The notes under the pieces are model-generated. The model did no database searches. It saw only the letters and a program-made list of their open reading frames with translations, and was not told the DNA's origin. A DNA stretch of 64,000 nt, from positions 45,608 to 109,607 of the forward strand of contig JACPCP010000015.1 in NCBI GenBank assembly GCA_016179745.1. The letters are read 5' to 3'. The DNA is from Candidatus Omnitrophota bacterium. GTDB taxonomy: Bacteria > Omnitrophota > Omnitrophia > Omnitrophales > JACQLI01. A program made the position numbers and the translations under genes. Positions 2,986-64,000 of this stretch are shown here, piece by piece; the first letter of the stretch is position 1, and the number at the start of each line of letters is the position of its first letter.

Positions 2986-3035
2986 AAAGGCCGAATTTTT
3001 AGCAGCCGATTCATCAGCAAAAATTCATAGATAAA

Positions 3036-3084
3036 AAAGGACAGGTTTCCCCACGACGAGGGGCACCTGTCCTTTTTTATTTTT
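3036..3084 (+). terminator. Rho-independent terminator
   Basis: AAAAAAGGACAGGT...ACCTGTCCTTTTTTATTTTT: a 9-14 bp stem followed by a T-run, 50 nt after the stop at 2985. Confidence 0.8.
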
Positions 3085-3192
3085 AGCTCTGCAACGATCG
3101 TTATAAACTGTTATGCCTTGCTAGCGTTTCTTAGAATGAAGTCCCTCCAACTCCAGGAAATTTTAAGACTTTTTTGAACCCGTTCCCGGATT

Positions 3193-36321: not shown

Positions 36322-37116
36322 GTGAAACCATACCTCGATTTGTTAAAACACATTCTTGCCGCCGGAACGGAGAAAAAAGACCGCACCGGCGTCGGGACGA
36401 TCAGCACCTTCGGCTATCAAATGCGTTTTGATCTCACTCGGGGATTTCCGCTTCTCACGACCAAGAAGATTCATCTGAAATCGGTGATCTACGAACTTTT
36501 GTGGTTTTTGGCCGGCGACACGAACGTGAAATATTTGAAAGATCACGGGGTCACCATTTGGGACGAGTGGGCGGACGAGGACGGCCAGCTCGGGCCGGTC
36601 TACGGAAAGCAATGGCGTTCCTGGGCCGATGCCAAAGGAGGAACGATCGATCAAATCGCCAATGTGGTCGAGAGGATCAAAACAAATCCCGACGACCGGC
36701 GGCTCCTTGTGAGCGCCTGGAACGTGGCCGAGATCGACCAAATGGCGCTCCCGCCCTGCCACTGCCTCTTTCAATTCTACGTTCGGGACGGGGAACTTTC
36801 CTGCCAGCTTTATCAAAGGTCGGCGGACGCCTTCCTCGGCGTCCCCTTCAACATCGCTTCTTATGCCCTTCTCACGCTGATGGTAGCCGGGGTGACGGGG
36901 CTCAAACCGGGAGAATTCATCCACACGTTTGGGGACCTTCACATCTATTTGAATCACCTGGAGGCGGTGCGCCTTCAACTCACCCGTGAGCCCCGTCCGT
37001 TGCCGGGAATGGTCCTCAACCCCGAAGTCAAAGACATCTTCAGTTTTCATTATGAAGATTTCCGGCTCGAAAATTACGATCCCCACCCGGCGATCAAGGC
37101 CCCGGTGGCGGTGTAG
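36322..37116 (+). CDS. thyA: Thymidylate synthase (ThyA)
   Basis: [19 protein letters not shown] and GDLHIY. 264 aa, GTG start. Confidence 0.95.
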
Positions 37117-37153
37117 TCCCCGCAGGGGACAGGCACCTTTAGGGGGACAGGCA
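37116..37153 (+). repeat. Intergenic copy of the GGGGACAGGCA element (hairpin GTCCCC-GCA-GGGGAC plus two direct GGGGACAGGCA units)
   Basis: Read directly: GTCCCCGCAGGGGACAGGCACCTTTAGGGGGACAGGCA. Confidence 0.8.
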
Positions 37154-37158
37154 AAATT

Positions 37159-37665
37159 ATGGAAGCTAAACTTTTCCATGTCGTGGCAATAGCAAAGAAC
37201 CGTGTCATTGGCAAAGACGGCAAGCTGCCCTGGCATTTTTCATCCGACCTCAAACATTTCAAAGAGCTGACGTGGGGGAGCACGGTGGTGATGGGCCGAA
37301 AGACCTTTGAGAGCCTCGGGAAACCGCTTCCCGGCCGGCAAAATTTCGTCCTGACCCACGCAAAAGGGGACAGTCCCCTTTGGGGGGACAGGCAGATGGG
37401 GTTGGGAGGTCCGGGCCCGGTGCGTTTCTTTAGATCCTTGGAAGAGGCCCTGGGTGCCGTCGAAACACCCCATTGCTACATCATCGGCGGCGCGGAAATT
37501 TTTAAGCAAACGATTTCCGGGGTCGACGGGATTTACCTCACCTGCATTGATCAAGAATATAAAGGAGACGCTTCTTACCCGGAGATCCCAGATTGTTTTA
37601 AGGAGATGAAACGGGAAATGCTTCAGGAGAATCCAAAACTCGAAGTGATTTATTATGAGAAGTAA
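37159..37665 (+). CDS. folA: Dihydrofolate reductase, carrying an 11-codon in-frame palindromic-element insertion
   Basis: VIGKDGKLPW, VVMGRKTFESLGKPLPGR and YIIGGAEIF. The loop after NFVLTH is about 13 aa longer than in E. coli DHFR. Confidence 0.9.
   Translation: MEAKLFHVVAIAKNRVIGKDGKLPWHFSSDLKHFKELTWGSTVVMGRKTFESLGKPLPGRQNFVLTHAKGDSPLWGDRQMGLGGPGPVRFFRSLEEALGAVETPHCYIIGGAEIFKQTISGVDGIYLTCIDQEYKGDASYPEIPDCFKEMKREMLQENPKLEVIYYEK
37362..37394 (+). repeat. Palindromic element copy inside folA (AAAAGGGGAC-A-GTCCCCTTT followed by GGGGGGACAGGCA)
   Basis: Read directly. It translates in frame as KGDSPLWGDRQ. Confidence 0.85.
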
Positions 37666-38320: not shown

Positions 38321-38353
38321 AAAAGGGACAGGCACCTTTTGAGGGGGGCAAAC
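38321..38353 (+). repeat. Intergenic copy of the GGGACAGGCACCTTT element
   Basis: AAAAGGGACAGGCACCTTTTGAGGGGGGCAAAC shares GGGACAGGCACCTTT exactly with 37126-37140. Confidence 0.75.
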
Positions 38354-39837: not shown

Positions 39838-39890
39838 AGGGAACAGGCAAACCCTGCTCGTGTAACTGGTTTGCCTGTCCCCTGGATTTT
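39838..39890 (+). terminator. Rho-independent terminator built from the GGGGACAGGCAAACC motif. Its 3' arm also supplies the nuoA -35 box.
   Basis: AGGGAACAGGCAAACC-14 nt-GGTTTGCCTGTCCCCT: a 16-bp stem with 1 mismatch, followed by GGATTTTT. Confidence 0.75.
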
Positions 39891-39900
39891 TAGCTATAAT
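39871..39900 (+). promoter_or_regulatory. nuo promoter (TTGCCT-18-TATAAT)
   Basis: TATAAT lies at 39895-39900 and the first ATG at 39909, with no SD between them. Confidence 0.5.
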
Positions 39901-49228: not shown

Positions 49229-49296
49229 TACTTTACTCGTTGTCTCAAAGCTCTTATGAATCAAGCTATCCTGGTCAGGAGTTCCGTCTCCCGGTA

Positions 49297-52200
49297 ATGG
49301 AAGTAAAACCCCGGCGGAGTCAGAAGGGCTTTTACTTTAGACTCACCACCTGGGCTGTTCTCATCACCTTCTCAACCCTCCAGATCGCCTGGGCCCAGGG
49401 GCCCGAAGCCCTCAAGCCGGCTGAAACGATCCGCCAAGCCCCCATCGATCCAAAATCCATTTCTCAGGAAGACTGGAAATCATCTTCCCAGACCGCAAAA
49501 CCGGTGGATCAAAAAACTTCGACCGACTACCTCATGGATGATTTCCCCCTGACTCGGGCGGACAAACAAGAGACCGAAGGCGAAGCGGCCGAGAAACGTG
49601 CCTTGACCCGCCAGACGATCCAATGGGAGAAACCCAGGATCACCTATTATTCCAACGGCAGGAAGAAGTCCTGGCAAAGACGGGGCACTGAGAATGGAAA
49701 GCTGAAGAGGCGTGAACTGAAGACCTATGACCCCCAGGGCAAAATCACCCGGGACCTCGACGAGACCTACCACCCGAATGGAAGGGTCGCAATCTCAGAT
49801 GACCGCCGTTACCTTGCAGGCGTCCTTGACAAACGCACCTACAAGACCTTTAACACACAAGGCCGGTTGACCCGCACTCTTTTCCGGGACTATGACCCCC
49901 ATGAAAAGCTCAGGATCTTGGACGACACCTCTTACACCAATGGCCACAAGACCGGGCGCCACCGGAATGAATACGACAGTTCCGGGATTCGCCTGAGTTA
50001 CCTTCGGGAAACCTTTTTCTCCGGAGAGAGCCTTAAAACTTCGGATAGTTACCGCTATTCGAGTGGCCGGCTCACCCAGAGGACCTACCAGGAACGAGAT
50101 GCTTCAGGAAATCAAATCGTCTCTCAATCCCGCGATTACACCGCCCCCCTCTACACGAATCTTCGGGATTTCGTATTCGAATACGCTGTAGACGGTTCCC
50201 CCTACACAGAGTCTTTCTCATTTACCGCCGAGGGCTCCACCCGGTTCCAGACGACAAAGGCCGGATACCTTGGGGCCGAAGTCAAGCTCGATATTGAAAT
50301 CATCTTTGATGAGACCCCGCCCGGAGCGGGTTCGGTGGCCCTCAGTGGCAATGCCGTTTACTCTCGGTCGGCTTCCGTAAGCCTTACTCTTGAGGTTGAT
50401 GACAACTGGACCACCGATGCCAATATCCAAATGGCCTTCTCCCAGAATGGAGGACAGACCTTTGGCGCCTTCGAAGCCTTCAACACCCAGAAGACACTCG
50501 CTCTTGAAGGCAGTGACGGCACCAAAGAAGTCATCGTCCGTTTCAAAGACGAAGCCGGCAACACCCTCGATGCCACAGACACGATTCACCTCGACCGCGC
50601 AATTCCTACCGGCAGCATCAATATCAATTCGGGGTCTTCTTACACAACCTCCACGGCCGTCACCCTAAATCTGGCTGCCCAGGACTCGGGCTCTGGCATT
50701 GATAAGATGAGTTTCTCCCAGGACAATACGGCTTGGACCGCCCCCGAGGCCTACAACGCCACGAAGAATTTCACTCTTCCTTCAGGAGACGGAACCAAGA
50801 CCCTTCGTGTGAAGTTTTACGATAAAGCCGGAAACGAGAGTCAGGTTTATTCCAAGTCCATCACTTTGGATTCAACCCTTCCTGACGGCTCCATCACAAT
50901 CAATAACAGTAATCTCTACACTTCCTCTCCTACGGTGACTCTTGCCTTGAGCGCCAACGATCCCACTTCAGGGGTTGCCGATATGCGTTTCTCAAACAAT
51001 TTCGGTTTCCAGTGGTCCGACTGGGAGCCTTTTGGCACAAGAAAGGATTGGACCCTTTCCTCTACCAATGGAGAAAGATGGGTTGCTTACGAGGTTCGCG
51101 ATTGGGCCGGCAATATCGCCAGGCTCTATGACTCCATCATCCTAGATACCCTTGCTCCCACTGGCTCCCTCAATATCAATTCAGGGGCCGTTTACACTGG
51201 TACTCCCACCGTGACCTTAAATCTTTCAGCCCAAGACTCGGGTTCCGGGATCGATAAGGTAAGTTTCTCTCAAGACAATACAACCTGGACTGCTCCCGAG
51301 GTCTACAACTCCACAAAGACCTTTACCCTTCCCTCAGGAGACGGGAATAAAACCGTCTACCTCAAGTATTACGACAAGGCAGGGAATGTAAGTGCGGTCT
51401 ATTCCAAATCCATTATTCTGGATACCCTTCCGCCCTCAGGCACGGTGCGGGTCAAGAATAGCGTTCAGTTTGTCAATCAGCGTTTCATTGATCTGGAATT
51501 CTCTGCCAGTGATGCAGGGTCAGGACTTGATTGGGTGAGGGTGTCGAATGACAACTCCACCCTGACCGAGATCCCCTACACGACCCTGGTGCCCGGCTGG
51601 GCTCTCTTGGAACCCGATGGCGTCAAAACCATCTACGTGCAATTTAAGGACAAATTCGGCCGCTGGTCGAGCCTTGTGACGACGACCGTCACATTGGACC
51701 GGGTGAAACCAGGGGTTTCCGCTGCGATCAGCTCAGGAAAGACTTACTCCAATTCGAGCCCGGTCATCGTAAATTTGCTAGCCACAGATGACCGAAGCGC
51801 CGGGACCAAACTACAGATGAGATTTGCAGTCGATGGCACAGCGGAAGGAAGTTTCAATGCCTGGGAGTCTTTGGGATCCCAGAAATCAATCAAGCTTCCA
51901 GAGGTTGACGGCAGCCACACGGTTTTCGCGGAGGTGAGGGATGAAGCCGGGAACATCAACCAAGCCTCAGTTTCCATCACTCTGGACCGGACGGCTCCGA
52001 CCGGTGGAGTCAAAATCAACAACGGGGCAGACCGAACGGGATTGAGAAAGGTCACGCTGACCCTGGATGCCCAGGATGCCTCGACCCAGGTGGAGAAGAT
52101 GCGGATTTCAGAAGACGGCGGGGCGAGCTGGACCCCCTGGCAGGATTTTTCAAACCAGATTGACTGGACTTTCGGGGGGCTTGAAGGGACGAGGGAAATC

Positions 52201-55200
52201 AGGGTCGAAGTAGGGGATTCGGCCGGGAATACCGCAACCTTCTCGGACACCATCGAACTCAACACTTCCATACCCCAGATCGCATTCACCTCCCCCTCCT
52301 CGACGGGTGATTCTCTTTACACCCTCCGCTACAAAGTGGATGGGGTGGAGCGAAGCGAAACCTGGCGTCTCGCCCCGGGGGCGAATCCACTTTTGGTGCG
52401 TGTCTCAGAGGATGGAAGACCACCGGCCTTTGCGAAGTTCACCGTGACACTCAATCAGTCGGAGCCCGCCCGTCCTTTGATGCCGAATGCTCCAACGCTG
52501 GCGGAAGACCTCATTTCAGTGACGACGGAGGGGGGGTTGGTTCTTAAATATGATAATAGCGTCCTCGTGGCCATGGAGAAACCCGGGGAGTATCAACTTT
52601 ATCTGCCGGAAGTGGATGGCAGCGGGAATCTCACAGGCGGATTAGTCCGATTTTCCGAAGGAGGTGAAATCTACTATGGGGACGGAAAAGTCGTTTGGCG
52701 CAAGGACCCTCAACAAAACACCTACTATTACAATCCCGACGGTTCTGTGCGGGAAGTGGCCGGACCGGAGGGACAAAGAAGTGTTTTCTCCTATCGCTTG
52801 GATTCCGAAAATGGCAAGGTCATGGAGACCCTTGTCTCCTCTTCAAAAGACACGAGCCTTTACGATGCCACGGGCCGCCTTCTACTAACCTTGAAAATCA
52901 ATGGGGACGTGGTTCATTACGACGGAGGAATCCTGGATTCAGTTGAGCGAAAAGGTACGGGCGAGGTCCTTCATTACGGCCGCACTGATGACCCCAAGAC
53001 GGGCGAAGTGACCGTGAGTGTTACGGGCTCCGCGACCCCCTTTCAAGAATACCCCTCGAGAGTCCGCTACGACCGCGAGGGCCAAATTCTCGAGGTGGTC
53101 GAGCCGGACGGGACTCAGATAAATTTTAAAGACGGCCTTCCAACCGAAAAAATCGAATTCATTGAAGGCGAAGTCCGTAAAACAAGCTATCAATATAAGA
53201 CGAATCCCCTTGAGGATCTTATCGGTCTCCAGATCTCAGGGACTCAATTGAAGCGGAGCTTCGACGCCCAAGGCAGACTCGGTGCGCTTGAAACCGACGG
53301 CGTTGAATTAAAAATTTCGGGGAACCTGGTGGAATCTCTGACCCTTCTTGAGGGAAGTGAAGGAGGATTTCCCTCGGGCACCACTGTTCGCTACGAAGAG
53401 CGGAATTCGCTCAAGCGGGCCCTTGTCAGTTATCCCGAGCCGGATGCAAGAAAATTAACCTACGAGGTAGAGGAAGGCGGGGATCGGTACACACTTCGTG
53501 AAATCCAGTTGCCAGATGGGACGATTCAGCGGTTTCGTCCGAACGGCAGCCTGGGATCCCTCGAGACTTCGGACGGAAGAATTTATGAATACGAGGCGGC
53601 GCCCGGCGGCGGGCGGTCCTTTTTGAAGGAATGGCGGCTTGCGGACGGCCGCAGGCTTTACTTCAAAAAGAAAAACCCGGATGCCCCGCTTCAATTATTC
53701 CTTGTCGAATTCCCGGATGGGCGGAGGATCGAAAATATCACATTCGACCCGGAGGGGCGCCTCAACCAGGCCGACGAGCGGGTCCCTGAGCGAGGGGCCG
53801 TTTCCTCACATGTGGACCACTATGAATCCGGCCGGCTTGTGAAGCGAAGTTTCCCCGATACGTCCGAGCTCCTTTTTAATGAGGACGGTATTTTTTATTC
53901 CTATCGTGATCCCCGAGGCGAAACCTACCAGGTTCGTGAGGAGAAAGGGCCCCAAAACGAGACGACCGGGTTCCGATTTGAAGGGTCCCGGGAGACGGTT
54001 GTCTATTCCCGGGAAGGCGTTCTGACCCGTTACCTCTCAAACGGGGTTTCATTTGAATTTGACCGGGAAGGAAAGGTTGCTTGGGCCAAGACTGTTTTCG
54101 GAGAAATCCAAAACCCCCTTTGGAATGAGGCCCAGGAACTCATTAGCGGCAGGGTCAGCCTGGCCGATGGATCTCGATATTTCCTGGAGGGTGGAAAGAT
54201 TGCCCGAATTCTTCGGTCCGACGGCTTGGAGATTACTTATACGGGGGACCGTGCCGCCCGGCTTGTCAAAGAGGATACGACACTTTTGCTGGAATATATC
54301 ACTGAGAACACGGGCTTGCTTAAGGGGGCTTTTGTCAGATACGAGACAGAAGGGGGACTTACGAGCGACGGCCTGATTAATTTTCTCATCCGCCCCGAAC
54401 GTGCCGGCGAGGCCGGAGAGGTTTTTGACGCACCGCTTGAAAATCTACTGACCTCCGGGAAAAGCCGGACAAGTGTGGCTGCCGTCCACCGGGTCCCTCT
54501 TGCCCTGGGAGTGGTCGAGCGAGGCAGTGCTTCAAACGGAGGTTGGTGGTTCGAAGTGATATTTGATTCTGCCGAAGTTTCGGAGGGACTTACACCGACC
54601 CTGAGTTTGGCGCCCAACCCTTTTCTCAATCACATGAATCTGGGCTACCAGATTTCGGAATCCGCCTCCGAGCCCCTCAATGATTTGATAAACTTTGGCA
54701 TTGCGGGCAACTTTGTGCTCAATGGCGGCCGGGTTCCGCTTGGGGCCGCCAGCATCGGGTCGAGAAAGGGTTTTCCGCTTAATTATGACGTCTCCCCTCC
54801 AGGAAGCTCAGTGGGTTTTTATGTGTCTTACGATGCGGATTGGATTGAAGGAATCGAAACACGGGATTTCTCAGGTTTGGGAGAGGTTGTTTTAAAAACG
54901 AAGGGGGAACTTGGGACGGTTTTGACGCTTGAGCTGACAGACCGTGAAAACCGACGAAGCCGGATCTTTTTGCGTGGGATTGACAACAGCGAGCGCTTTT
55001 TTAATCTGGATTTTTCCCTTTTTCAAGGTGTTGACATCACTCACATCAAATCGGTCAGCTATATCCTGGAAGGCGACCGGCAGCTTGTAAAGACCGGAAC
55101 GCTGGATATCCAATGGGGCAGCCCTTTCGTTGCTTTATCTCCGCAACCAGAATTGGATTCGACAAGCGGAGTCGAATTGCCGCAATTTCAATGGCTTCAC

Positions 55201-58200
55201 GTAGTGCCCCAAAAGTATCCTGCCTATCCCCAGGGTGTCTCGGATAAATTCGTAACCACTCGATCGTCCGATTCCGAGATGGAATTTCATTTCGAAGGGG
55301 CATCGGATTATTACACGGCTTCCGCCGTCTTTGATTACGATCTTGCGAATACGAAAGACGTGGTGGAATACAAGGACCTTTCAGCCTTTGCGGGTCTTCT
55401 GCTGGGAAGCGAGAGAGCGGTCGAAGGGATCAACTTTTTTTCGATTCAGGATGCACATGGGAACCGGGCCCGTGTGAGGTTGTTCGGCAACGCCGGGACC
55501 CCCAATTTTTATTTCTTGGATCTGGATAAGATGGGCATCGATCTCAGGCGGGTCCGTTCCCTGGCGTTTGTCTACAATGATCCAAAGGTGGAAGACGGAC
55601 GGGTATGGCTCCGTGGGATTCCCCGTGAGGGCCCCGTCCCCTTCCCAGCCGTAAATCCCGATACGGATGAGCTTGCCATTCTCGCCGACGAGACCGTGAC
55701 GGTGGCTGTGAACCCGGGCGAACTTGTCCGATCCGATTATCTTAGCGTGAGCATTCGGCCTCCTCCGGGCGTGGTTGATTCAAAGGCCGTGCTAACTCTC
55801 GGTGAGGCCGTCTATCGAACAGAAACCCTATCAGACGATTGGAGCCACCTGGTAATTCCCCTCGCCAAATTTTCCGGGGCGCAGGCCGATTCTCTTCAGA
55901 TTTCCTTTGAAGGAAGCACAAGAGAGGGAAGCTACTTGATCGACAATCTCGTTTTAATGCGTTTCCAGGATAATTCGGCATCAACCCTTTTGCCCAAACT
56001 CAGGGTGACAGCCGAATCCCTTTCGCAAGGGGAGAGAACTCACCTTCCGGATCTGGCGAAACTCTCAGCCTCTTTCGTCTCCGAGTTTTCCGGGCGCAAT
56101 GAAACACCGGCTCGGATCCATTCCGAACTCGGAGCCTTGACGAGTGTCGTGACCGACATTTTTTATGATTCCAATGGCCAGATCAAAGAGGTAAAGACCG
56201 GTGATGGAAAAACTCTCGTGATGGCCGAGGAAGGGCTCCAGCAGGCTTTGTTCAGTCAGGGAGTGACCGTTGATTACGGATCCGGCCCAGGAAACGAACC
56301 TCAATCCTTGACGGTTGCGGGCCCCGGAGGAAATCAAGCCCCTCTTTCGGCGAGCTATCAATACGGACGTATCCGGGAAGTGAGGCGTTCGGACGGCTCC
56401 CGCCTTCAATATGGATACGAATTCATAGACGGGGCCGAAATCACGGTCGTCAAGACACCGCTTGGGACGGAGCCTGAGACCTATGAGATCAAGCGCTATC
56501 ACCGAGATCCCGGGAACCCTTATCAGATCGGCCAGCTCTTGTCGGTCGAAGAACCCACCGGCCTTCTGACGGTCTATGAGTATGGAGCCGGGTCCGGAGG
56601 TCCCGAGGCGCCGCTTAAGCTAAGCCGGACTTATTACAAGGGGCGGTTGCGTTCGGAATTTAGTTACGAGTATCGGGAAGGCCGGACGTTTGTGACCGAT
56701 CAAGAGGGCACGGTCACGGAGTATGATTCTGATGGCCGACTTCGTTCCCACACGACGCCGGATGGTTTCCGCTACGAGCATCTCTTCGAAGATGAAAACT
56801 TTCGGGTGATTGACGGCCGAAGTTACCTTAACGGGAAACTCATCCGCCTTGAAACGGAGGGTTTCACCATTGAAGAAGCAGTGACCGACTCAGAAGGTTT
56901 CCTCACAGAGGCCCTGCTTCTTTACCAGGATGGTCACCGGACATTTTTCGTGAAGGGAGCCCCCTACCTGACCACCCGGGATGTTGGAGAAGCCACCTTC
57001 TTTGATCCGGCTAAGGACGGCGAAAACCCAGGCTTTCAAAACGAAATGTCCAATTTTCGGCTCGCTCAAACGCTCTGGAAGGGTGCCCCCAAGAGTCCAG
57101 CGGCAGAGATCCTGCCGGAAAAAGTTGAGGTGGTTCGGCTTGTTTCGAGGGAGTCGGACGAGATAAGCGCGGAATACCGCGAAGGGAGACTCGAGGACCT
57201 TCGGTTTAAGGAAGATGGAATGGAGGTGACGGGCCTTTCCTATGACCGAGACGGGGAGCTCGATGGAGCCCGGATCAAACTGGACGACGGAACCGGATTT
57301 CTGTTCCAAGAAGGGCTTCATGTTATCCGGAGCCGCTCAAATGAGGTCGTCGAGCGCCTCACCCCGTGGGATCCCCCCCTGGCCTACCGAAATGAATCCG
57401 AACGCTGGGAACGTTTAAAGATGCAGTCTGCGACTTTTGTCCGGAGCCCCGATGAGACCGGCCGCTCCAAGAAAACGGATCTCGGAATGGCCCTTTACGA
57501 TGAAACAGGCCGTATCCTTGAAATCCATTTGAGGGCGGAAGGAGTCATTCTAAGGGATTTCGAATTTAACGACCGGGGAAAACTGGTGCGGGCCAAAGTT
57601 TTTTCCGGAGGAGAGGAAACGACTGAATACCGCGAGGGTTTATCCCTTTCCTACCAGGGGGGCGACGGAAGGCCTGGGAAAGTCTTTTCCCTGTTTGACG
57701 AGGGCAACTTCCATTATGAATCGGCGAGGAGCCGTTGGAAAGTTTGGAAGGAAAAGATATCAGAGTATCTCCTGGACCCGGCTTTTGTGTTTGAGACCGA
57801 GCTCGATAGCGAGGGCATGATCCTCACCCTCACCAAAGCGAACCAATCCGTTTCAGTCTATGAAAAAGGAAAAGTTGACCAGGTTTTCGATCAGGAAGGA
57901 AGGCTCCTGATTACAAACCGGTACGACCCCCTCGAGGGAATGCTCATTTCCATCACGATGGTGGATGCCCGCAGGCGGCTTGAGGAAGACACCTTTGAGG
58001 CCCGGCGCGACCTCCGGAGGCAAAAGGTCCTGGCGCTTGAGAAATTGGCCCGCGATACGGATCTGGCCACGCAGGCGCTCCGGGACCAATTTGAGGGACC
58101 ACGGAAAATTCTTCTGGCTCAGCGCGCCAATGTGGAGTCACTTTTGGCGAACCTTGAGGCAACCAAAGTGCGCGGCAAGCAGGGGAAACGGGAGAAATCG

Positions 58201-61194
58201 GGCGCCTTGGATCAGATCCGGGGAGCGCTTCACCAGATCGAGAGCGCCCTTTCCGAACTCGACCGTAAGTATGCAGAAGCGATTGAATCCCTCTCCCAAA
58301 AAGCCGCAGAGGTTGCGAGCCAGATTGAGTCCGAGACTGGGCGGGCGCTCCAAAAGCTTGAAAAAACAAGGGCGGATTATCTGGCCGAAATCTTAAGGCA
58401 GGAGATCGCTCCGGTCCTGCATGACCTTTACCGGAATGCCCTGGGCCGTGACCCGGGCGAAGAAGAGACCCGCGAAGCCATCCGTGAAAAGGAGACCGGA
58501 ACCTTTGATTCCCACACCCTCCGGGCGAAACTCCTTAGAAGCGCGGAATACCAAGCCCGTCTTGACGAGGTGAATCGGATTCGAGAGGGAGTCCGAGAAA
58601 CACTCGCGCTCTACCTCGCGGGCCGTTATTCTGCGACGGACGAGCTTGGTCTCACTGAGAAGGAAGTGGTTTCACTCACTTCCGAGGAAGCTGACCAAAT
58701 TCTTCAGTGGCTGGATGGCCACGATCTTCATTTTGGACATTCGGCCTTTCTAGCGATGGAGAGTCTGCTCCGGGATGAGGGGAGAAATGTCTCCCTTCGG
58801 GAACTCGCTGCCCGGGCGATTTTAATCGACATCTTTTCCGGTGTGATCGGTCCTTTTGAGGAAGGGGAGCTTAAACTGAGCCTCTTTGCCTTGGAACGGA
58901 CCGCCCGATTTTACGGGGTAACGTTCTATCCCGCTGAAGTCAGTTATGAGGAACTGAGACAAATGGTTCTGGGCGGCAAGAAAGTAATGGTCCATCTGAA
59001 AGGGGATCACTACACGGTGATTACCGGCTTTGAGACGGTCTCGGAAACCCAAGTTCTTTGTCAGGACGGCCGGCCGGTCGAGATTCAGGTTCCGGTGGAA
59101 AAGGTGAAGACCCTGGAGCGGAATAAGGGGGCGGCGGGAGAAGAAGTGGTGCTCACGAAGGAGCAATTCCTCGATGCCTGGCTTCAGGGTGAAGGAGAAA
59201 AGGGATTTGTCCTCTCGGCCGTCGCGGCCGATCCCCGAGGGACCGGGACGGTTCTGACCCAGGAAAAGGCCCAATCCGTCCGGGGCGCCTTCTTTTTCTT
59301 TATTCCTTTTATCATCTCAGTCCTTGTTTCGGTCATTCAGGCGGTGATTGCGGTGGTGATTGCTGTGGTGGCCGCTGTGGTGGCTGCCGTGAGTGCCGTG
59401 ATCTCAGCCGTGGTCGGGGCCATCTCCAATTTGGTGACGACTCTGGGGCGGGGCCTGAGCTATTTGGCCCGGGGTTTCCAAGCGGTGGGGAAATTCCTTT
59501 TCGAAGGGGTTCGGGACGTAGGGAAACTTCTCTTAAAGGGCCTCCAGTTTGTCGGCTCCAGGCTTTACCAGGGATTTCAGGCGGTGGGCCATTTCCTGAA
59601 AGAAGCAGCTCTCAACTTGGGAGGAAAGCTCTGGCAGGGGATGGAGAAGATCGCTACGAAGCTCGCCCAGGGATTCACCAAGCTCTTCTCAAAGCAGGAC
59701 CTGACCAAACTTTTTTCAGTCAAGGGCGGGGCCACCAGCTTCAAGACAAGCCTCCTTAAGAATGCCCTGGGCTACGGCCTTAATTTCTCCCTTTCCAAGG
59801 GATTGGATTCGTTAGGGATTGATTTCCCAGGTCTCAATCTTCTTACCTCCTTTGTGACCGGAGGGATTGCCGGATTAACCGACAATGCCTCTTCCACGAG
59901 CTTCTTTACAAGTGCCCTCAAGAAGCTCACCCTCACGGGTCTTTCCACCCTGGCTCTCCACCTCGATCTCCCGCCTCCCATCGCCAACGCGATTTCTCTT
60001 GTTGGTGCCACCCTCGTAGGTGCCACGCTTGACCCTTCCGTTACTGTCCCCGAAGCCCTGAAAGACCTTGCCCCCACCCTTACCCGTGACTTGACCTTCC
60101 AGGGAATTCTTTCTGTCGGAGAAGCCATTGGTCTTGATCCCCGCTTATCAGCATTGATCGGCATTCCGATTAGGGCAACTGTTGGCAGTATCACAGGGAA
60201 TGCCTTGGGGGTGAAGGGGTACGAGGACCTCTTCGGAGAAATTACGAGTCAAACTATCGGTGGCCTTGTTTCTGTCGGCTCAAGCATTGGTTTGAATGCT
60301 GTTGGTGCCTCGCCCATTCTCCAAAGCTTCCTTCCAAGTTTCTTGGGTAACTTTGTTGCGGGTTTTGGTGGTACACCCGGTGGGTCTGATGCTATCCAAC
60401 GAGAAGGCGAAAACATCTTTAAGAAAATTACAGATGGCATTATTAAGTTTGGAAAGGGCCTTGCCTCCGCAGTCGGAAATGTCACATCCTTCGGCACAAA
60501 GGTTATTGAAGGTGGAGTTAACCTAGTGAAGCAGGGATTCGCTAAGGCGGTGGATTTCTTCAGCGGCGTATTTGACCGGCGGACGCAAGAAGCTTTGATC
60601 CAGGCTGGGGGCGGTAACATCGAGCAGGCCATCCTCAATAATGCAACGATTGTTAATGGAACCGCCAGAGCGTCCATCGATGGCGTTGAAATCGTTTGGG
60701 ATTCTGCGTTAGATAAGCTGACCTATACTGGTCCGGCGGGTGTAAGCGCGGCATTTTCCAAATTGGTTATGGACACAACTGGGAATTTCGGGATGGGGGA
60801 TTTTGCCTATGCTGAAACTACGCAAAACAGTGCAGTCATCAACTTAACTTCTAAAAAGTCTTACATTGAAGCTTCGGTTACGATGGACGATAAGCGCATT
60901 GTGGTTGAGTCCTTGGGCGGACGAGACCTTGTGAGCCGAACGTTGGGTCCATTTGTAAGGCCTACAGTTGTATTTGAGAGCACAGCGGCAGAGAATAATT
61001 ATCAAATTAAAGTAGATATGGAAAAAGGTGGTTTGACAGAAGTAAAAGCACCTTGGGAATATGTGACAGCAATTAAAGATTTCTTCACGCAGGGGGCTTT
61101 TAAGAGTATCGTTCAAGAGTATTTGAAAGACCAAATCGAGGATTTATTAACACCAATTTTTGAAAAGTTAGACGAAATTTTGAGAAGAAAATGA
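49297..61194 (+). CDS. Giant secreted/membrane-anchored multidomain protein (~3,965 aa)
   Basis: Single uninterrupted 11.9-kb ORF. The ATG at 49297 gives a signal peptide (KPRRSQK, then LTTWAVLITFSTLQIAWA|QG). Domain order:
- YD/MORN-like hairpin repeats (about 49640-50130, 52560-54400, 56150-57700)
- seven Ig-like repeats
- three CBM-like modules
- a coiled coil (about 57960-58400)
- a DUF4214-like motif (LYRNALGRDPGEEE)
- a C39/papain-like domain
- a TM hairpin
- 11-mer repeats
- a Gly/Leu/Ser-rich tail. Confidence 0.85.
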   Translation: MEVKPRRSQKGFYFRLTTWAVLITFSTLQIAWAQGPEALKPAETIRQAPIDPKSISQEDWKSSSQTAKPVDQKTSTDYLMDDFPLTRADKQETEGEAAEKRALTRQTIQWEKPRITYYSNGRKKSWQRRGTENGKLKRRELKTYDPQGKITRDLDETYHPNGRVAISDDRRYLAGVLDKRTYKTFNTQGRLTRTLFRDYDPHEKLRILDDTSYTNGHKTGRHRNEYDSSGIRLSYLRETFFSGESLKTSDSYRYSSGRLTQRTYQERDASGNQIVSQSRDYTAPLYTNLRDFVFEYAVDGSPYTESFSFTAEGSTRFQTTKAGYLGAEVKLDIEIIFDETPPGAGSVALSGNAVYSRSASVSLTLEVDDNWTTDANIQMAFSQNGGQTFGAFEAFNTQKTLALEGSDGTKEVIVRFKDEAGNTLDATDTIHLDRAIPTGSININSGSSYTTSTAVTLNLAAQDSGSGIDKMSFSQDNTAWTAPEAYNATKNFTLPSGDGTKTLRVKFYDKAGNESQVYSKSITLDSTLPDGSITINNSNLYTSSPTVTLALSANDPTSGVADMRFSNNFGFQWSDWEPFGTRKDWTLSSTNGERWVAYEVRDWAGNIARLYDSIILDTLAPTGSLNINSGAVYTGTPTVTLNLSAQDSGSGIDKVSFSQDNTTWTAPEVYNSTKTFTLPSGDGNKTVYLKYYDKAGNVSAVYSKSIILDTLPPSGTVRVKNSVQFVNQRFIDLEFSASDAGSGLDWVRVSNDNSTLTEIPYTTLVPGWALLEPDGVKTIYVQFKDKFGRWSSLVTTTVTLDRVKPGVSAAISSGKTYSNSSPVIVNLLATDDRSAGTKLQMRFAVDGTAEGSFNAWESLGSQKSIKLPEVDGSHTVFAEVRDEAGNINQASVSITLDRTAPTGGVKINNGADRTGLRKVTLTLDAQDASTQVEKMRISEDGGASWTPWQDFSNQIDWTFGGLEGTREIRVEVGDSAGNTATFSDTIELNTSIPQIAFTSPSSTGDSLYTLRYKVDGVERSETWRLAPGANPLLVRVSEDGRPPAFAKFTVTLNQSEPARPLMPNAPTLAEDLISVTTEGGLVLKYDNSVLVAMEKPGEYQLYLPEVDGSGNLTGGLVRFSEGGEIYYGDGKVVWRKDPQQNTYYYNPDGSVREVAGPEGQRSVFSYRLDSENGKVMETLVSSSKDTSLYDATGRLLLTLKINGDVVHYDGGILDSVERKGTGEVLHYGRTDDPKTGEVTVSVTGSATPFQEYPSRVRYDREGQILEVVEPDGTQINFKDGLPTEKIEFIEGEVRKTSYQYKTNPLEDLIGLQISGTQLKRSFDAQGRLGALETDGVELKISGNLVESLTLLEGSEGGFPSGTTVRYEERNSLKRALVSYPEPDARKLTYEVEEGGDRYTLREIQLPDGTIQRFRPNGSLGSLETSDGRIYEYEAAPGGGRSFLKEWRLADGRRLYFKKKNPDAPLQLFLVEFPDGRRIENITFDPEGRLNQADERVPERGAVSSHVDHYESGRLVKRSFPDTSELLFNEDGIFYSYRDPRGETYQVREEKGPQNETTGFRFEGSRETVVYSREGVLTRYLSNGVSFEFDREGKVAWAKTVFGEIQNPLWNEAQELISGRVSLADGSRYFLEGGKIARILRSDGLEITYTGDRAARLVKEDTTLLLEYITENTGLLKGAFVRYETEGGLTSDGLINFLIRPERAGEAGEVFDAPLENLLTSGKSRTSVAAVHRVPLALGVVERGSASNGGWWFEVIFDSAEVSEGLTPTLSLAPNPFLNHMNLGYQISESASEPLNDLINFGIAGNFVLNGGRVPLGAASIGSRKGFPLNYDVSPPGSSVGFYVSYDADWIEGIETRDFSGLGEVVLKTKGELGTVLTLELTDRENRRSRIFLRGIDNSERFFNLDFSLFQGVDITHIKSVSYILEGDRQLVKTGTLDIQWGSPFVALSPQPELDSTSGVELPQFQWLHVVPQKYPAYPQGVSDKFVTTRSSDSEMEFHFEGASDYYTASAVFDYDLANTKDVVEYKDLSAFAGLLLGSERAVEGINFFSIQDAHGNRARVRLFGNAGTPNFYFLDLDKMGIDLRRVRSLAFVYNDPKVEDGRVWLRGIPREGPVPFPAVNPDTDELAILADETVTVAVNPGELVRSDYLSVSIRPPPGVVDSKAVLTLGEAVYRTETLSDDWSHLVIPLAKFSGAQADSLQISFEGSTREGSYLIDNLVLMRFQDNSASTLLPKLRVTAESLSQGERTHLPDLAKLSASFVSEFSGRNETPARIHSELGALTSVVTDIFYDSNGQIKEVKTGDGKTLVMAEEGLQQALFSQGVTVDYGSGPGNEPQSLTVAGPGGNQAPLSASYQYGRIREVRRSDGSRLQYGYEFIDGAEITVVKTPLGTEPETYEIKRYHRDPGNPYQIGQLLSVEEPTGLLTVYEYGAGSGGPEAPLKLSRTYYKGRLRSEFSYEYREGRTFVTDQEGTVTEYDSDGRLRSHTTPDGFRYEHLFEDENFRVIDGRSYLNGKLIRLETEGFTIEEAVTDSEGFLTEALLLYQDGHRTFFVKGAPYLTTRDVGEATFFDPAKDGENPGFQNEMSNFRLAQTLWKGAPKSPAAEILPEKVEVVRLVSRESDEISAEYREGRLEDLRFKEDGMEVTGLSYDRDGELDGARIKLDDGTGFLFQEGLHVIRSRSNEVVERLTPWDPPLAYRNESERWERLKMQSATFVRSPDETGRSKKTDLGMALYDETGRILEIHLRAEGVILRDFEFNDRGKLVRAKVFSGGEETTEYREGLSLSYQGGDGRPGKVFSLFDEGNFHYESARSRWKVWKEKISEYLLDPAFVFETELDSEGMILTLTKANQSVSVYEKGKVDQVFDQEGRLLITNRYDPLEGMLISITMVDARRRLEEDTFEARRDLRRQKVLALEKLARDTDLATQALRDQFEGPRKILLAQRANVESLLANLEATKVRGKQGKREKSGALDQIRGALHQIESALSELDRKYAEAIESLSQKAAEVASQIESETGRALQKLEKTRADYLAEILRQEIAPVLHDLYRNALGRDPGEEETREAIREKETGTFDSHTLRAKLLRSAEYQARLDEVNRIREGVRETLALYLAGRYSATDELGLTEKEVVSLTSEEADQILQWLDGHDLHFGHSAFLAMESLLRDEGRNVSLRELAARAILIDIFSGVIGPFEEGELKLSLFALERTARFYGVTFYPAEVSYEELRQMVLGGKKVMVHLKGDHYTVITGFETVSETQVLCQDGRPVEIQVPVEKVKTLERNKGAAGEEVVLTKEQFLDAWLQGEGEKGFVLSAVAADPRGTGTVLTQEKAQSVRGAFFFFIPFIISVLVSVIQAVIAVVIAVVAAVVAAVSAVISAVVGAISNLVTTLGRGLSYLARGFQAVGKFLFEGVRDVGKLLLKGLQFVGSRLYQGFQAVGHFLKEAALNLGGKLWQGMEKIATKLAQGFTKLFSKQDLTKLFSVKGGATSFKTSLLKNALGYGLNFSLSKGLDSLGIDFPGLNLLTSFVTGGIAGLTDNASSTSFFTSALKKLTLTGLSTLALHLDLPPPIANAISLVGATLVGATLDPSVTVPEALKDLAPTLTRDLTFQGILSVGEAIGLDPRLSALIGIPIRATVGSITGNALGVKGYEDLFGEITSQTIGGLVSVGSSIGLNAVGASPILQSFLPSFLGNFVAGFGGTPGGSDAIQREGENIFKKITDGIIKFGKGLASAVGNVTSFGTKVIEGGVNLVKQGFAKAVDFFSGVFDRRTQEALIQAGGGNIEQAILNNATIVNGTARASIDGVEIVWDSALDKLTYTGPAGVSAAFSKLVMDTTGNFGMGDFAYAETTQNSAVINLTSKKSYIEASVTMDDKRIVVESLGGRDLVSRTLGPFVRPTVVFESTAAENNYQIKVDMEKGGLTEVKAPWEYVTAIKDFFTQGAFKSIVQEYLKDQIEDLLTPIFEKLDEILRRK
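50311..52263 (+). repeat. Seven tandem ~92-aa Ig-like domain repeats within the giant ORF
   Basis: Recurring pattern P(T/D/S)G.I.IN.G..YT....V.L.L.A.D..SG...M.FS......W...E.....K.W.L....G.K.V.V...D.AGN. Units 2 (50599-50874) and 4 (51151-51426) are about 75% identical at the aa level. Confidence 0.8.
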
Positions 61195-61736
61195 AAAAGA
61201 TTTTCAGTTTTCTTGCTATTGTATTTCTCCTTGTCATTACAGCTGTATTTGTATTTTCTGATTATCTCTCTGGTAATTTCACAAGTTATAAGATCCCTCT
61301 TGATTCTATGGCACCAACGATAAGCACCAACGACTTAATAGCAGTTGCTACTGGAGCATATGAAAAGACCCTACCAATGAGAGGTGATATTATCGTTTTT
61401 ATAACACCGTTTGATGAAAAAAAGAAATTCGCTAAAAGAATAGTTGGTTTGCCCGGTGATAAAGTTGAGATTAAAGAAGGTAAGGTTTACGTAAATGGGA
61501 AACGAATTCAATCTGATAGATTTCCAGATAATCGATATTATTTAACTCATGGAGATTGGGACTATGGGAATGAAGGCCAAATCATAGATGTGCCGGACAA
61601 TATGTATTATGTGTTGGGCGATAAGAGTGCGCATTCCAGTGATAGCAGGCAATGGGGATTTGTTCCCGCTAAAAACGTAATTGGTAAAGCAACAGTTGTT
61701 TATTGGCCGCCTTGGCGATGGAAATTTATAAAATAA
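61191..61736 (+). CDS. lepB: Type I signal peptidase (S26 family, short Gram-positive-like form)
   Basis: N-terminal TM, SMAPTI (Ser nucleophile box), GDIIVF, KRIVGLPGD (Lys box) and GDKSAHSSDSRQWGFV. ATGA overlap with the giant ORF stop. Confidence 0.88.
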   Translation: MKKIFSFLAIVFLLVITAVFVFSDYLSGNFTSYKIPLDSMAPTISTNDLIAVATGAYEKTLPMRGDIIVFITPFDEKKKFAKRIVGLPGDKVEIKEGKVYVNGKRIQSDRFPDNRYYLTHGDWDYGNEGQIIDVPDNMYYVLGDKSAHSSDSRQWGFVPAKNVIGKATVVYWPPWRWKFIK

Positions 61737-61759
61737 CGTCAAAAGTCGGAAAAAGAAAA

Positions 61760-61784
61760 AATGGCGTCACTTCCAAACGCCATT
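61760..61784 (-). terminator. Hairpin terminator oriented for the minus-strand small ORF
   Basis: AATGGCGT-9 nt-ACGCCATT. On the minus strand it is followed by TTTTTTCTTTTT. Confidence 0.55.
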
Positions 61785-62034
61785 ACGGGTACCACATTAC
61801 CGCCTCTCCAATGATCCGGGTCTTGTAAGGGTGAGCGAGTTTGACTTCCACTTCCCATCTTTGAAGTAAACCCACGATCCGATACCCGCTGCAGATCACC
61901 TCCAGAGTGGCTTTAATTTTCCCTTCCCAGTGCTTGAGGTAAAGCGTAAAATGCCCCGGCTCGCTGGAAAGGTTCCATTGCTTCCACGCTTGACCCGTTT
62001 CATCTAGGAATATCCCTGCGAGAAAGATCAACAA
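61783..62034 (-). CDS. Hypothetical small protein (~83 aa)
   Basis: This is the C-terminal part of ORF 61783-62223. I chose the TTG at 62034 because the upstream part would overlap dapF antisense. It has its own terminator. No family was recognised. Confidence 0.3.
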   Translation of the reverse strand: MLIFLAGIFLDETGQAWKQWNLSSEPGHFTLYLKHWEGKIKATLEVICSGYRIVGLLQRWEVEVKLAHPYKTRIIGEAVMWYP

Positions 62035-62444
62035 TGAAAGAAATTTCCTTTTATAAAATGGCGGCGTCGGGGAACGATTTTGTGGTGATCGACAACCGTG
62101 CCCGGAAAGTTTCAAATTTGCCGGCCCTGACCCGGGCCGTTTGCGACCGGCACCGGGGCGTGGGGGCTGACGGGGTCCTCTTGCTCGAACCCTTAGCGAA
62201 GGAAAAAGGGGACGGCCCCCCAAAAAGGGGACAGTCCCCTTTTTCTTCGAAGAAGGCCGATTTCCGGGTCCGGATTTTTAATTCGGACGGTTCGGAAGCG
62301 GAAGCCTGCGGCAACGGATTTCGCTGTGCGGCCTTGTTTGCGAAGGAAAAATTGGGGCTTCCCAACCGGCAGCAATTTGAGTCTCTCTCCGGAATGATTC
62401 ATAGTAAAAACGGTAGCATTTCCAAAAGTGCCGGGTTGAGGTAA
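62034..62444 (+). pseudogene. dapF: Diaminopimelate epimerase, 5' ~45% only. It is truncated at a RAYT element and carries an in-frame palindromic-element insertion.
   Basis: SGNDFVVID, RHRGVGADGVLLLEP and DFRVRIFNSDGSEAEACGNG (first catalytic Cys). Homology ends at about FESLSGMIH. The frame then runs into the left inverted repeat and stops. Confidence 0.8.
62203..62244 (+). repeat. Palindromic element copy inside dapF (AAAAAGGGGACGGCCCCCC, then the perfect palindrome AAAAAGGGGAC-A-GTCCCCTTTTT)
   Basis: Read directly. It translates in frame as EKGDGPPKRGQSPFS. Confidence 0.85.
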
Positions 62445-63179
62445 AATCTCCCCGTAGTTTTTTAACTCTCAATCTCACAGGGTTGTGGCGGACACGTAAA
62501 AATCAGGCACAGCCGATTCACCCTCCTTTGAAATATAAAAAGGAGGACCCCATGCCCCGCAAACCAAGGGAACTTGTCAATGAAGGAATCTACCACCTCT
62601 TCAACCGTGGTAATGACCGAAGGAACCTTTTTCAGGAGGCCCCGGATTTTCACCATTTTCTCAGCCTGCTTTTGCAAGCGGCAAAGAAATACCCTTCGGA
62701 GATCTTCCATTACTGTCTGATGACCAACCACTTTCACCTCCTGGTCCGGATTGCCCGGGGAGAAGATCTGCCTCCCTTCATGCATCTGGTCCAGCTCGGC
62801 TATGCCCGTTACTTCAAGAAGAAATACGGCTTCGTCGGTCATGTCTTCCAGGAAAGATTCCGCAGCCCACGTATCCCCGAAGAAAGCTACTACCTCCAGT
62901 GCGGCCGTTACATTGAGAGAAACCCCGTCTCAGCCCGCCTGGTCAAGGATCCCTGGGACTACCCCTATTCCAGCGCCCCTTTTTATGCCTCCGGAGAAAC
63001 CGATCCTTTAGTTACCCCGAATCTTTATTACGAGGGGATGGCGACCGACAGTGAAGAGCGGAGGCGGCGCTATCGGGAATTTCTCTCAGCCGAGGAGCCT
63101 TACGCCGGGATGATTGACAAGGCACTGGTTAAGGTCTGAACGTGGAAACTGTTGAACCCGGCACTTTTGGAAATGCTAC
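62413..63179 (+). mobile_element. RAYT/IS200-like unit: a Y1 transposase gene bracketed by perfect 25-bp inverted repeats (REP-like)
   Basis: The left repeat GTAGCATTTCCAAAAGTGCCGGGTT (62413-62437) is the exact reverse complement of 63155-63179. Each 25-mer can itself form a 6-bp hairpin. Confidence 0.8.
62552..63139 (+). CDS. REP-associated tyrosine transposase (Y1 HUH, IS200/IS605 TnpA-like)
   Basis: AGGAGG RBS 5 nt before the ATG at 62552. YHLFNRGNDRRNLF, CLMTNHFHLLV (the HUH motif is HFH), and GYARYFKKKYGFVGHVFQERFRS. Confidence 0.85.
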   Translation: MPRKPRELVNEGIYHLFNRGNDRRNLFQEAPDFHHFLSLLLQAAKKYPSEIFHYCLMTNHFHLLVRIARGEDLPPFMHLVQLGYARYFKKKYGFVGHVFQERFRSPRIPEESYYLQCGRYIERNPVSARLVKDPWDYPYSSAPFYASGETDPLVTPNLYYEGMATDSEERRRRYREFLSAEEPYAGMIDKALVKV

Positions 63180-63193
63180 GCTAAATCTAGGCG

Positions 63194-63373
63194 TTGAAAA
63201 ACAAGCCAACACAAATATCTGATTTTATTCCTCCTGAAGATAAGCTGTTGAGTGTTCGCCGTTCCACGGTCAATCCTGTTTCACCAAACGATCCGGAAGT
63301 TAATCAGTATGAACTTCTGACGGAGGGAGAGGAATTGTTAGAAGCGTGGTTCAAAAACAGGAGAAATCTATGA
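63194..63373 (+). CDS. Hypothetical 59-aa protein (low-GC)
   Basis: TTG start, below the ORF-track cutoff. Reads MKNKPTQISDFIPPEDKLLSVRRSTVNPVSPNDPEVNQYELLTEGEELLEAWFKNRRNL. Its stop overlaps the next ATG (ATGA). Confidence 0.3.
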   Translation: MKNKPTQISDFIPPEDKLLSVRRSTVNPVSPNDPEVNQYELLTEGEELLEAWFKNRRNL

Positions 63374-63723
63374 TTAAGGATGTGAAGAACGAAGAAGACT
63401 TAGTAATTATTATCTCGGAAAAGGGACAAGCTTCTTTGCGACTCGGCGTAAAGGTTGCAGAGATTTTGAAATTTGAAGATTCGATAATCGTCAGAACGGC
63501 CGCTATCAGCAAGGAGAGGGCCCGCAACATCCACCGATACTCAGAAGACGGCACCAAAATCTGGACGGTGGAGGAGCCGGAAGGTGTCAAAGATCAGGCG
63601 AATGCTTTTACGGGATTAAGGCTGAATGAGAAAGACGGAATCATCGGATACACATGGGTGGGAACGAAGCATAGAATTGATTTTGCTACCGGCAAACTCC
63701 TCAGCAGCGAATTCACCAAATGA
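63370..63723 (+). CDS. Hypothetical 117-aa protein (low-GC)
   Basis: I preferred the ATG at 63370 (MIKDVKNEEDL...) over the GTG at 63346. No family was recognised. Confidence 0.45.
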   Translation: MIKDVKNEEDLVIIISEKGQASLRLGVKVAEILKFEDSIIVRTAAISKERARNIHRYSEDGTKIWTVEEPEGVKDQANAFTGLRLNEKDGIIGYTWVGTKHRIDFATGKLLSSEFTK

Positions 63724-63890
63724 AACTCTGGCATCTCGGGCTCCTCCTTACGATTGGAGCCAGCCTTGTGAATGGCCTCCTCATCCGCTTCGATATCACC
63801 GGCCTTCCCCGTGAATTCATGCGCCTCCTCATTCTTCTAGGTCTCGGAATCCTTGCCTTCAGCCTGATCCAAAAATTCAAGCGAAATTAA
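63720..63890 (+). CDS. Hypothetical 56-aa membrane protein (two hydrophobic helices)
   Basis: ATGA overlap with the previous gene. Sequence: MKLWHLGLLLTIGASLVNGLLIRFDITGLPREFMRLLILLGLGILAFSLIQKFKRN. Confidence 0.35.
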   Translation: MKLWHLGLLLTIGASLVNGLLIRFDITGLPREFMRLLILLGLGILAFSLIQKFKRN

Positions 63891-64000
63891 TGCCCCAAAA
63901 GCTCATTGCCCTTCACCTTCTCTTTATGTTTTCCTTCCAACAAGTTACCTTTGTTTCCTGAACCGATTATCTTTCTCGGGGTGCCGATTCATCTCTTTGG

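Follow-up and report, generated by a model that had tools for sequence, protein, structure and literature searches.

The Rickettsia palindromic elements (RPEs), the subject of work by Ogata et al. in 2000 and 2002, are reportedly palindromic repeats that lie in frame in functional genes at positions compatible with the protein fold; RPE-1 is said to measure ~100-150 bp and to encode 30-50 residues, and we know of no transposase linked to it. In the REPIN/RAYT system of Pseudomonas and E. coli, attributed to Nunvar in 2010 and to Bertels and Rainey in 2011, short hairpins, often arranged as doublets, are said to flank a single-copy HUH Y1 gene. Here we describe a 33-nt two-part palindromic repeat inside folA, the gene for dihydrofolate reductase (DHFR), in a 64-kb stretch of a Candidatus Omnitrophica metagenome-assembled genome (MAG), hereafter called the window. 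We read this unit, with a probability of roughly 0.75, as a hairpin repeat of the GGGGWSAS type that resembles repetitive extragenic palindromes (REPs), was probably mobilised by a transposase similar to the REP-associated tyrosine transposases (RAYTs), and has been kept only where reading frame and protein fold were preserved. Stem-loop REPs of 20-40 nt, tagged with GTAG or CGTC, are mostly intergenic, and a fraction of them lies in frame in genes for known proteins (PMC3733652). The same survey (Di Nocera et al. 2013) recorded in-frame intragenic REPs in Opitutus terrae, where they are most abundant, in Rickettsia, in Thauera and in other bacteria, frequently in dimeric form with 20-30 encoded residues and in some cases with several copies in one gene, and gave GGGGWSAS as the motif of the inverted repeats flanking TIRYT genes, relatives of RAYTs; the phylum Omnitrophota and the gene folA lay outside its scope.

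The folA unit is similar to these intragenic REPs in size (a unit of 32-33 nt with perfect 9-bp arms around one base), in its in-frame insertion and in the formation of dimers, and Opitutus terrae, like Omnitrophota, belongs to the Planctomycetota-Verrucomicrobiota-Chlamydiota (PVC) group. It differs in that the folA copy has no terminal GTAG or CGTC and is built on a G4-ACAGT-C4 core with A- and T-run shoulders. The word GGGGACAG, which occurs in both modules of the unit, fits GGGGWSAS, as do the terminal inverted repeats (TIRs) of TIRYT TIRtrons, and hairpins with the same core flank RAYT-like Y1 genes and form dimers or clusters; unlike that arrangement, the Y1 gene of the window itself is flanked by GTAGCATTTCCAAAAGTGCCGGGTT and not by a folA-type hairpin. 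The short hairpin, the doublets and the association with an HUH Y1 transposase gene that it flanks are all shared with REPIN/RAYT, but classical REPINs carry GTAG and lie almost exclusively outside genes, whereas here a notable share of the observed copies lies inside open reading frames (ORFs). An initial annotation of this DNA had drawn an analogy with the Rickettsia elements. The analogy holds for in-frame insertion, at a predicted surface position of an otherwise conserved protein, into genes that stay functional, as folA most likely does. It does not extend to size (33 nt against ~100-150 bp for RPE-1), to sequence, which is unrelated, or to the host, and the closer analogues are the short REPs found inside genes and the TIRs that accompany RAYT/TIRYT transposases, both already described.

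A literature search that used the literal sequence, and Omnitrophota combined with REP or palindromic terms, brought up nothing relevant. The principle of in-frame intragenic REPs and RPEs has already been published for Rickettsia, Opitutus and others, and the advance is therefore one of scope and example, not of kind. What is new is the host phylum, an essential enzyme in which filled and empty sites are well defined, evidence that among hairpins of its class this core is the commonest in environmental bacteria, and its position beside RAYT-like genes in several phyla. The locus provides a clear case, open to checking, in which an essential and well-understood enzyme has acquired residues from a non-coding repeat, and the filled and empty sites in close relatives make it a tractable model for the gain of a protein loop insertion. 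A hairpin that annotators meet widely as spurious KGDSP, RGQSP or GTVP peptides is now tied to a candidate transposase family, and annotators of Omnitrophota and other uncultured phyla are warned that repeats can be the source of length differences in conserved proteins.

The folA insert and its copies in the window

The host gene folA (37159-37665, + strand) encodes a 168-aa product identified as DHFR by Pfam (PF00186, DHFR_1; E = 1.3e-44), with an intact ORF and all the invariant DHFR residues; the protein is 100% identical to an NCBI entry on a 121-kb contig. The insert occupies 37362-37394 on the + strand (nhmmer E = 3.6e-8) and consists of two modules. Module A, AAAAGGGGACAGTCCCCTTT (37362-37381), has the form AAAAGGGGAC-A-GTCCCCTTT, a perfect palindrome with 9-bp arms around a central A, and module B, GGGGGGACAGGCA (37382-37394), follows directly on its 3' side and duplicates the 5' arm of module A at an offset of 18 nt. 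The repeat core is G4-AC-A-GT-C4 between A- and T-runs, followed by a half-copy, GGGACAGGCA. In the folA frame, the 33 nt translate to KGDSPLWGDRQ (residues 69-79), placed after NFVLTHA. The element and its peptide had been named correctly in the initial annotation, with the reservation that the interval given begins 1 base ahead of the codon boundary, K69 starting at 37363. All six frames of the unit are free of stop codons, so that insert length alone decides whether a host gene stays open.

Within folA, at 37382-37398, GGGGGGA stands 7 nt before the in-frame ATG of Met80, an arrangement resembling the true folA start, where GGGGGA at 37142-37147 precedes the ATG at 37159; the Met80 ATG is not kept in the orthologues L121 and L123 (L-numbers denote loci fetched for comparison). 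Two other classes were considered for the folA hairpin and rejected. As an intrinsic terminator it is followed by TTTGGGG, three T where at least five are looked for, and the consensus scan was negative. A miniature inverted-repeat transposable element of 70-300 bp, with TIRs and a target-site duplication, does not fit a 33-nt unit that shows no duplication at the folA, L123 or spacer copies.

The initial annotation had also placed the same modules in nearby intergenic hairpins, and counts of the word GGGGACAGGCA bear this out. It occurs exactly at 37125, 37143, 37384 and 39872 (- strand) and with one mismatch at 38324, 39839 and 55221, a total of seven matches with at most one mismatch against 1.75 expected, a number reached in none of 100 shuffles. 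The repeat occupies five loci in the window, four of them within 2.8 kb. Searching with a small profile made from these copies retrieved four two-part units, three in the window and one in the folA loop of L123 (7565-7597; E = 5e-9). Those in the window are the folA unit (37363-37395, +; E = 4e-8), a unit in the thyA-folA spacer (37123-37154, +; E = 1e-7, more exactly 1.1e-7) and an intergenic unit, AAAAGGGACAGGCACCTTTTGAGGGGGGCAAAC, downstream of a metallo-beta-lactamase-fold gene (38322-38351, +; E = 2e-6).

The spacer between thyA (36322-37116) and folA is 42 nt long (37117-37158, +) and almost wholly repeat, consisting of the hairpin GTCCCC-GCA-GGGGAC followed by GGGGACAGGCACCTTTAGGGGGACAGGCA, which is identical to the folA copy GGGGACAGTCCCCTTTGGGGGGACAGGCA at 26 of 29 positions. 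It provides both the TAG stop codon of thyA and the GGGGGA ribosome-binding site of folA. The thyA stop is TAG in the window and TGA in the relatives L122 and L123, the TAG lying within GTAG-TCCCC-GCA-GGGGA (37113-37134), and the inserted repeat seems to have supplied the thyA stop codon together with a GTAG-tagged mini-hairpin. Further downstream, a hairpin on the 3' side of a chlorite-dismutase-family gene (39839-39882) has arms that are inverted module copies, GGGAACAGGCAAACC ... GGTTTGCCTGTCCCC, and folds as RNA at -30.1 kcal/mol (z = -5.66). A promoter-like match, TTGCCT-18 nt-TATAAT (10/12; 39871-39900), overlaps the 3' arm of this hairpin; the next ORF on the + strand begins downstream of it, near 40030.

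A second host ORF in the window is the 5' remnant of dapF (62034-62444, +), whose 136 aa match PF01678 over profile positions 1-101 of 121 only. It contains an in-frame doublet, AAAAAGGGGACGGCCCCCC + AAAAAGGGGACAGTCCCCTTTTT (62203-62244, +; fold z = -4.28), in which the exact folA 20-mer recurs at 62222, 25 kb from folA, after the sister hairpin AAAAAGGGGACGGCCCCCC. The doublet encodes part of KEKGDGPPKRGQSPF, the remnant reading LLLEPLAKEKGDGPPKRGQSPFSSKKADFRVRIFNSDGSE, and solved DapF chains show a gap of 15-21 residues opposite it. The motif is therefore repeated in spacers and in a second ORF, contrary to the outcome that the initial annotation had said would speak against a mobile repeat. 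A candidate for a third intragenic copy, AAAAAGGGGGACAAGGCCCCC at 467, was rejected, since it lies in a Redoxin/Tpx gene, encodes the native LKKGDKAPSF motif and adds no extra length.

Orthologous sites and the loop they occupy

Three relatives with the gene order ggt-thyA-folA-metallo-beta-lactamase (MBL) hydrolase were fetched and aligned. The folA loop of L123 holds GAAAGGGGACAGTCCCCTTTTGAGGGACAGGCAAC, which is identical to the window unit at 30 of 32 positions and at all 19 positions of the palindrome, while the flanking coding DNA of the two genes is 69-80% identical. The immediate flanks of the L123 unit are unrelated to those in the window and its frame is shifted, giving the peptide RGQSPFEGQA in place of KGDSPLWGDRQ. 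The loop of L121 carries a variant, AAAAGGGGACAGTCCCCTAAAGGGACAGG, and a further hairpin, whereas L122, 89-90% identical to L121 in the flanks, has a short loop and no element. The comparison of folA orthologues that had been proposed as a check thus yields presence and absence of the unit, and, in place of a conserved peptide encoded by unrelated nucleotides, the same DNA read in a different frame. These relatives show the folA insert to be a DNA element and not a conserved peptide. The element of the thyA-folA spacer is absent from L122, L123 and L128; in L122 and L128 thyA overlaps folA by a single base, and the L123 spacer has 42 nt and no repeat. The spacer copy of the window is therefore also an insertion. 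Just upstream of the common unit, at 7525-7560, L123 has a GTAG-tagged palindrome, GTAGGGG-N15-CCCCTAC, and its loop accordingly carries two different hairpin elements.

The loop in question had been described as about 13 residues longer than that of E. coli DHFR; it is indeed longer, and the alignments put the excess at 11-12 residues relative to solved DHFRs. HMMER alignments to two of these (1zdr, 3tq8) leave a 12-residue gap opposite AKGDSPLWGDRQMGLGGPGP, and the E. coli DHFR chain covers 131 residues where the folA product has 142. The stretch that runs from FVLSR to IIGG measures 42 residues in the window product, against a mode of 30 in the 120 closest homologues, almost all of which come from Omnitrophota-like metagenome contigs. 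An AlphaFold model of the folA product, built on 54 homologues, reached a mean predicted local distance difference test (pLDDT) score of 89.8 and a predicted template modelling (pTM) score of 0.84; its only low-confidence part was residues 71-90, with means of 52 (71-80) and 65 (81-90). In the predicted structure, the insert falls between the strand at 61-65 and the strand at 88-91, and the structural check suggested at the outset thus places it, in the model, on a disordered surface loop of DHFR. By the established fold of E. coli DHFR, this is the CD loop (strands C-D) of the adenosine-binding subdomain, at a distance from the Met20, FG and GH loops, which govern catalysis.

Insertion into this loop was not confined to one repeat. 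The CD loop exceeds the mode by at least 8 residues in 32 of the 120 homologues, and many of the inserts resemble translated repeats (CHSEPRRGEES..RSFASLRMTE, EIASS..PRNDN, HPNPLPEGEG). The folA genes of L127 (114-668) and L128 (1110-1598) differ by 3 substitutions in 489 nt (99.4% identical) and by a clean 66-nt palindromic insert that folds at -48 kcal/mol (z = -4), and those of L369 (480-1103) and L370 (244-777) are identical apart from a 90-nt indel, which lies within a palindrome with perfect 30-nt arms and is bounded by the 9-nt direct repeat AAGGCGAAG. These sequence comparisons indicate that the CD loop of folA is a hotspot for unrelated palindrome families in Omnitrophota, the insert in the window being one of several that use it. 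In L129, the folA frame runs through a repeat copy at its 3' end and acquires the tail KGDSPQGDTPHSRE.

The same type of palindrome was observed in a different gene of another Omnitrophota genome. In L016, a gene for a MiaB-type methylthiotransferase (4052-5380) contains three in-frame doublets of GGGGACAGTCCCC, at 4305-4345, 4487-4545 and 4828-4868, the first and third being identical 41-mers, and for every doublet the alignment to the solved MiaB structure shows a gap. To judge by sequence, in-frame colonisation of coding DNA by palindromes of the GGGGACAGTCCCC type appears to be general in the phylum. A serine-recombinase-like ORF (2496-4139) is located directly upstream of the miaB-like gene in L016. 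The claim in the initial annotation that the element colonises coding sequence in frame is therefore supported by its repetition in spacers and dapF and by its presence, absence and frame shifts among relatives; the palindromic repeat that it called selfish is real, and its selfish nature and mode of spread are what we infer.

The core motif and RAYT-like transposase genes

To follow the core beyond Omnitrophota, the 19-mer AAAGGGGACAGTCCCCTTT was scanned in one genome per bacterial species, where it matched at least 120 stretches against an estimated ~4 by chance. The matches listed came from Actinomycetota, Myxococcota, Acidobacteriota, Aminicenantes, Planctomycetota, Nitrospirota, Bacteroidota, Clostridia, Omnitrophota and others. 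The core stands at the tip of longer, genome-specific stems, often in +/- doublets and often just 3' of stop codons; many copies in other phyla lie just after stop codons and have T-runs. In a control scan, AAAGGGG-N5-CCCCTTT with a free centre was searched in an unselected sample of metagenome contigs and in viral contigs. Among the 141 metagenome sites, ACAGT/ACTGT was the commonest centre (28 sites), TCAGA was next (22), and 70 fitted GGGGWSAS, for which a uniform expectation is 6%. The 128 viral sites, in contrast, included 13 that fitted GGGGWSAS, 9 with TCAGA and none with ACAGT/ACTGT, and exact hairpin matches in viral contigs numbered only 3. Within the metagenome loci (L249-L368), the second commonest centre corresponds to GGGGTCAGACCCC (22/141), CCAGG recurs, and all share a C-A/T-G centre.

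A tblastn search with the Y1 protein of the window was run against 240 bacterial loci, fetched purely by the hairpin pattern, and 119 viral loci. Homologues with 31-42% identity were found in 9 of the 240 bacterial loci, spread over several phyla, and in none of the 119 viral loci. The hairpin was near the Y1-like gene in all nine, upstream copies, where seen, being 18-76 nt from the start codon, and it stood on both sides of the gene in five (L002, L007, L085, L104 and L301). The best NCBIfam match of these Y1-like proteins was REP-associated tyrosine transposase, three of them scoring above the curated cut-off. Hairpin-flanked RAYT-like genes are the classical REP-RAYT arrangement, and such an enzyme is therefore most likely the agent of spread.

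A broader proposal is that hairpins of the form G4-(A/T)(C/G)A(C/G) constitute a single REP superfamily that is distributed across phyla together with one RAYT-like clade, and that Omnitrophota palindromes routinely enter coding sequence. We put this forward tentatively, at somewhat less than even odds. If it were true, the superfamily would make up about half of the AAAGGGG-N5-CCCCTTT hairpins in environmental metagenomes, and palindromes would be a regular source of surface-loop peptides, as in the CD loop, expanded in about a quarter of homologues, and the three miaB inserts. Omnitrophota would then be a free-living counterpart of the RPE phenomenon of Rickettsia, with a candidate enzyme in addition.

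Alternative explanations and the dapF region

According to the explanation we favour, a RAYT-like transposase acting on single-stranded DNA would produce new copies in trans from the AAAAGGGGACAGTCCCCTTTT hairpin, a mode of mobilisation suggested by analogy with REP-RAYT systems. Such repeats would multiply within the genome and land at many places, and an intragenic copy would survive if its length kept the frame, brought no stop codon and placed its residues in a tolerant, solvent-exposed loop. In folA, the tolerant place would be the loop between strands C and D, and because this loop lies far from the catalytic loops in the predicted fold, the product most likely still functions as a DHFR, decorated with 11 disordered residues; the copy would be neutral or nearly so. 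In its 54-nt context, the folA hairpin folds no better than shuffles (z = -1.05), and the evidence for the folA element consequently rests on repetition, not on folding energy. Several observations weigh against this explanation. The folA copy shows neither a GTAG/CGTC tag nor a target-site duplication, its flanks being ACGC/AAAAGG and GGCA/GATG, and those of the L123 copy ATATG/ and /ACCGT (the slash marks the boundary); only the spacer copy follows GTAG, which doubles as the thyA stop codon. Four copies (37123, 37363, 38322 and 39839) are grouped within 2.8 kb, and the copy that the folA unit most resembles is that in the spacer 240 bp upstream, both of which would also fit local copying. 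A single ancestral insertion, and not three independent ones, might be common to the window, L121 and L123. Neither the window nor the 4 kb beyond it yielded a transposase gene with the folA-type hairpin at its flanks, and the Y1 gene of the window itself is not supported as the mobiliser, as detailed below.

Local copying is the main rival. It holds that the folA insert was templated from the spacer repeat, or the spacer repeat from the insert, by template switching or slipped-strand repair at hairpins, and that in a second step quasi-palindrome correction turned GGGGACAGGCACC into the perfect GGGGACAGTCCCC. Besides their proximity and their 26/29 identity, the two copies have the same orientation, a similarity that extends to ATGG and the same 18-nt spacing of two GGGGACAG words; tandem growth is seen in dapF and L016, and the L369/L370 indel is bounded by a direct repeat, as slippage predicts. 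However, L123 has the unit in the folA loop and none in the thyA-folA spacer, the identical 20-mer in dapF is 25 kb away, and the same core flanks transposase genes and occurs in many phyla. Local copying may account for the growth of clusters, not for the dispersal of the family, and while we regard it as unlikely to explain the folA insert, it is a likely contributor to doublets and arrays.

Selection in place for an RNA or DNA function, as an attenuator or RNase site, an internal start at Met80 or a lineage-specific peptide loop, appears improbable. The folA unit and its next bases do resemble the folA start region (CCTTTAGGGGGACAGGCAAAATTATGG against CCTTTGGGGGGACAGGCAG---ATGG), and when the window is compared with L123, conservation is higher in the palindrome than in the coding DNA around it, but neither L121 nor L123 conserves the ATG that follows the unit, and the hairpin, which folds like its shuffles, is followed by only TTT and drew no terminator call from the consensus scan. 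The peptide, moreover, varies by frame between relatives, is absent from L122 and has low pLDDT, and unrelated palindromes occupy the same loop in other lineages. An assembly or binning artefact, with a chimeric join or a mis-assembled repeat inside folA, is the least probable of the alternatives and very improbable in itself: the source is a MAG, repeats break assemblies and three Logan contigs all start at window position 62342, but the ORF is intact with every invariant residue in place, independent assemblies (Logan, ENA and NCBI, from other samples) have the same kind of insert in the same loop, and L371 shows 0 mismatches to the window over 1659 nt. We retain the REP-like hairpin repeat as the best explanation of the folA insert.

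The Y1 gene of the window belongs to a RAYT/TIRYT-like cassette (62413-63179, +) that interrupts dapF 170 nt past the 3' end of the palindrome doublet; beyond the cassette, the 3' half of the gene is missing. The gene (62552-63139) encodes a Y1 (HUH) tyrosine transposase (Pfam PF01797) with HUH and Y-x-x-x-N-P motifs, which scores 67 bits against NCBIfam NF047646, under the cut-off of 80, and is a member of a tight 195-aa subfamily. Perfect 25-nt inverted repeats, GTAGCATTTCCAAAAGTGCCGGGTT, which start with GTAG, bound the cassette at 62413-62437 and 63155-63179. A homologue in another Omnitrophica MAG (L374, 3001-3588), 61% identical to the window protein, is bounded by a related 37-nt inverted repeat (2804-2840 and 3582-3618) and not by the folA-type hairpin, which was also not found downstream of the window gene within 4.9 kb. 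Flanking by the folA-type hairpin is thus absent for the Y1 gene of the window and was seen for the same core in nine loci of other genomes, and the sequences suggest that the window gene, with its own inverted repeat, is probably not the mobiliser of the folA-type hairpin.

Three independent Logan contigs with the identical transposase (L371, L372 and L373) all start at the base corresponding to window position 62342, which lies inside the dapF remnant, 210 nt upstream of the transposase gene; the common start suggests an assembly break or a population variant. The G+C content drops from ~0.55 to 0.45-0.50 over 60001-64000, a segment that comprises the end of a giant ORF, a signal peptidase gene, the dapF remnant and the transposase gene, and that may be an island or a rearranged region. 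The giant ORF is a single + strand frame of 3984 codons (49240-61194).

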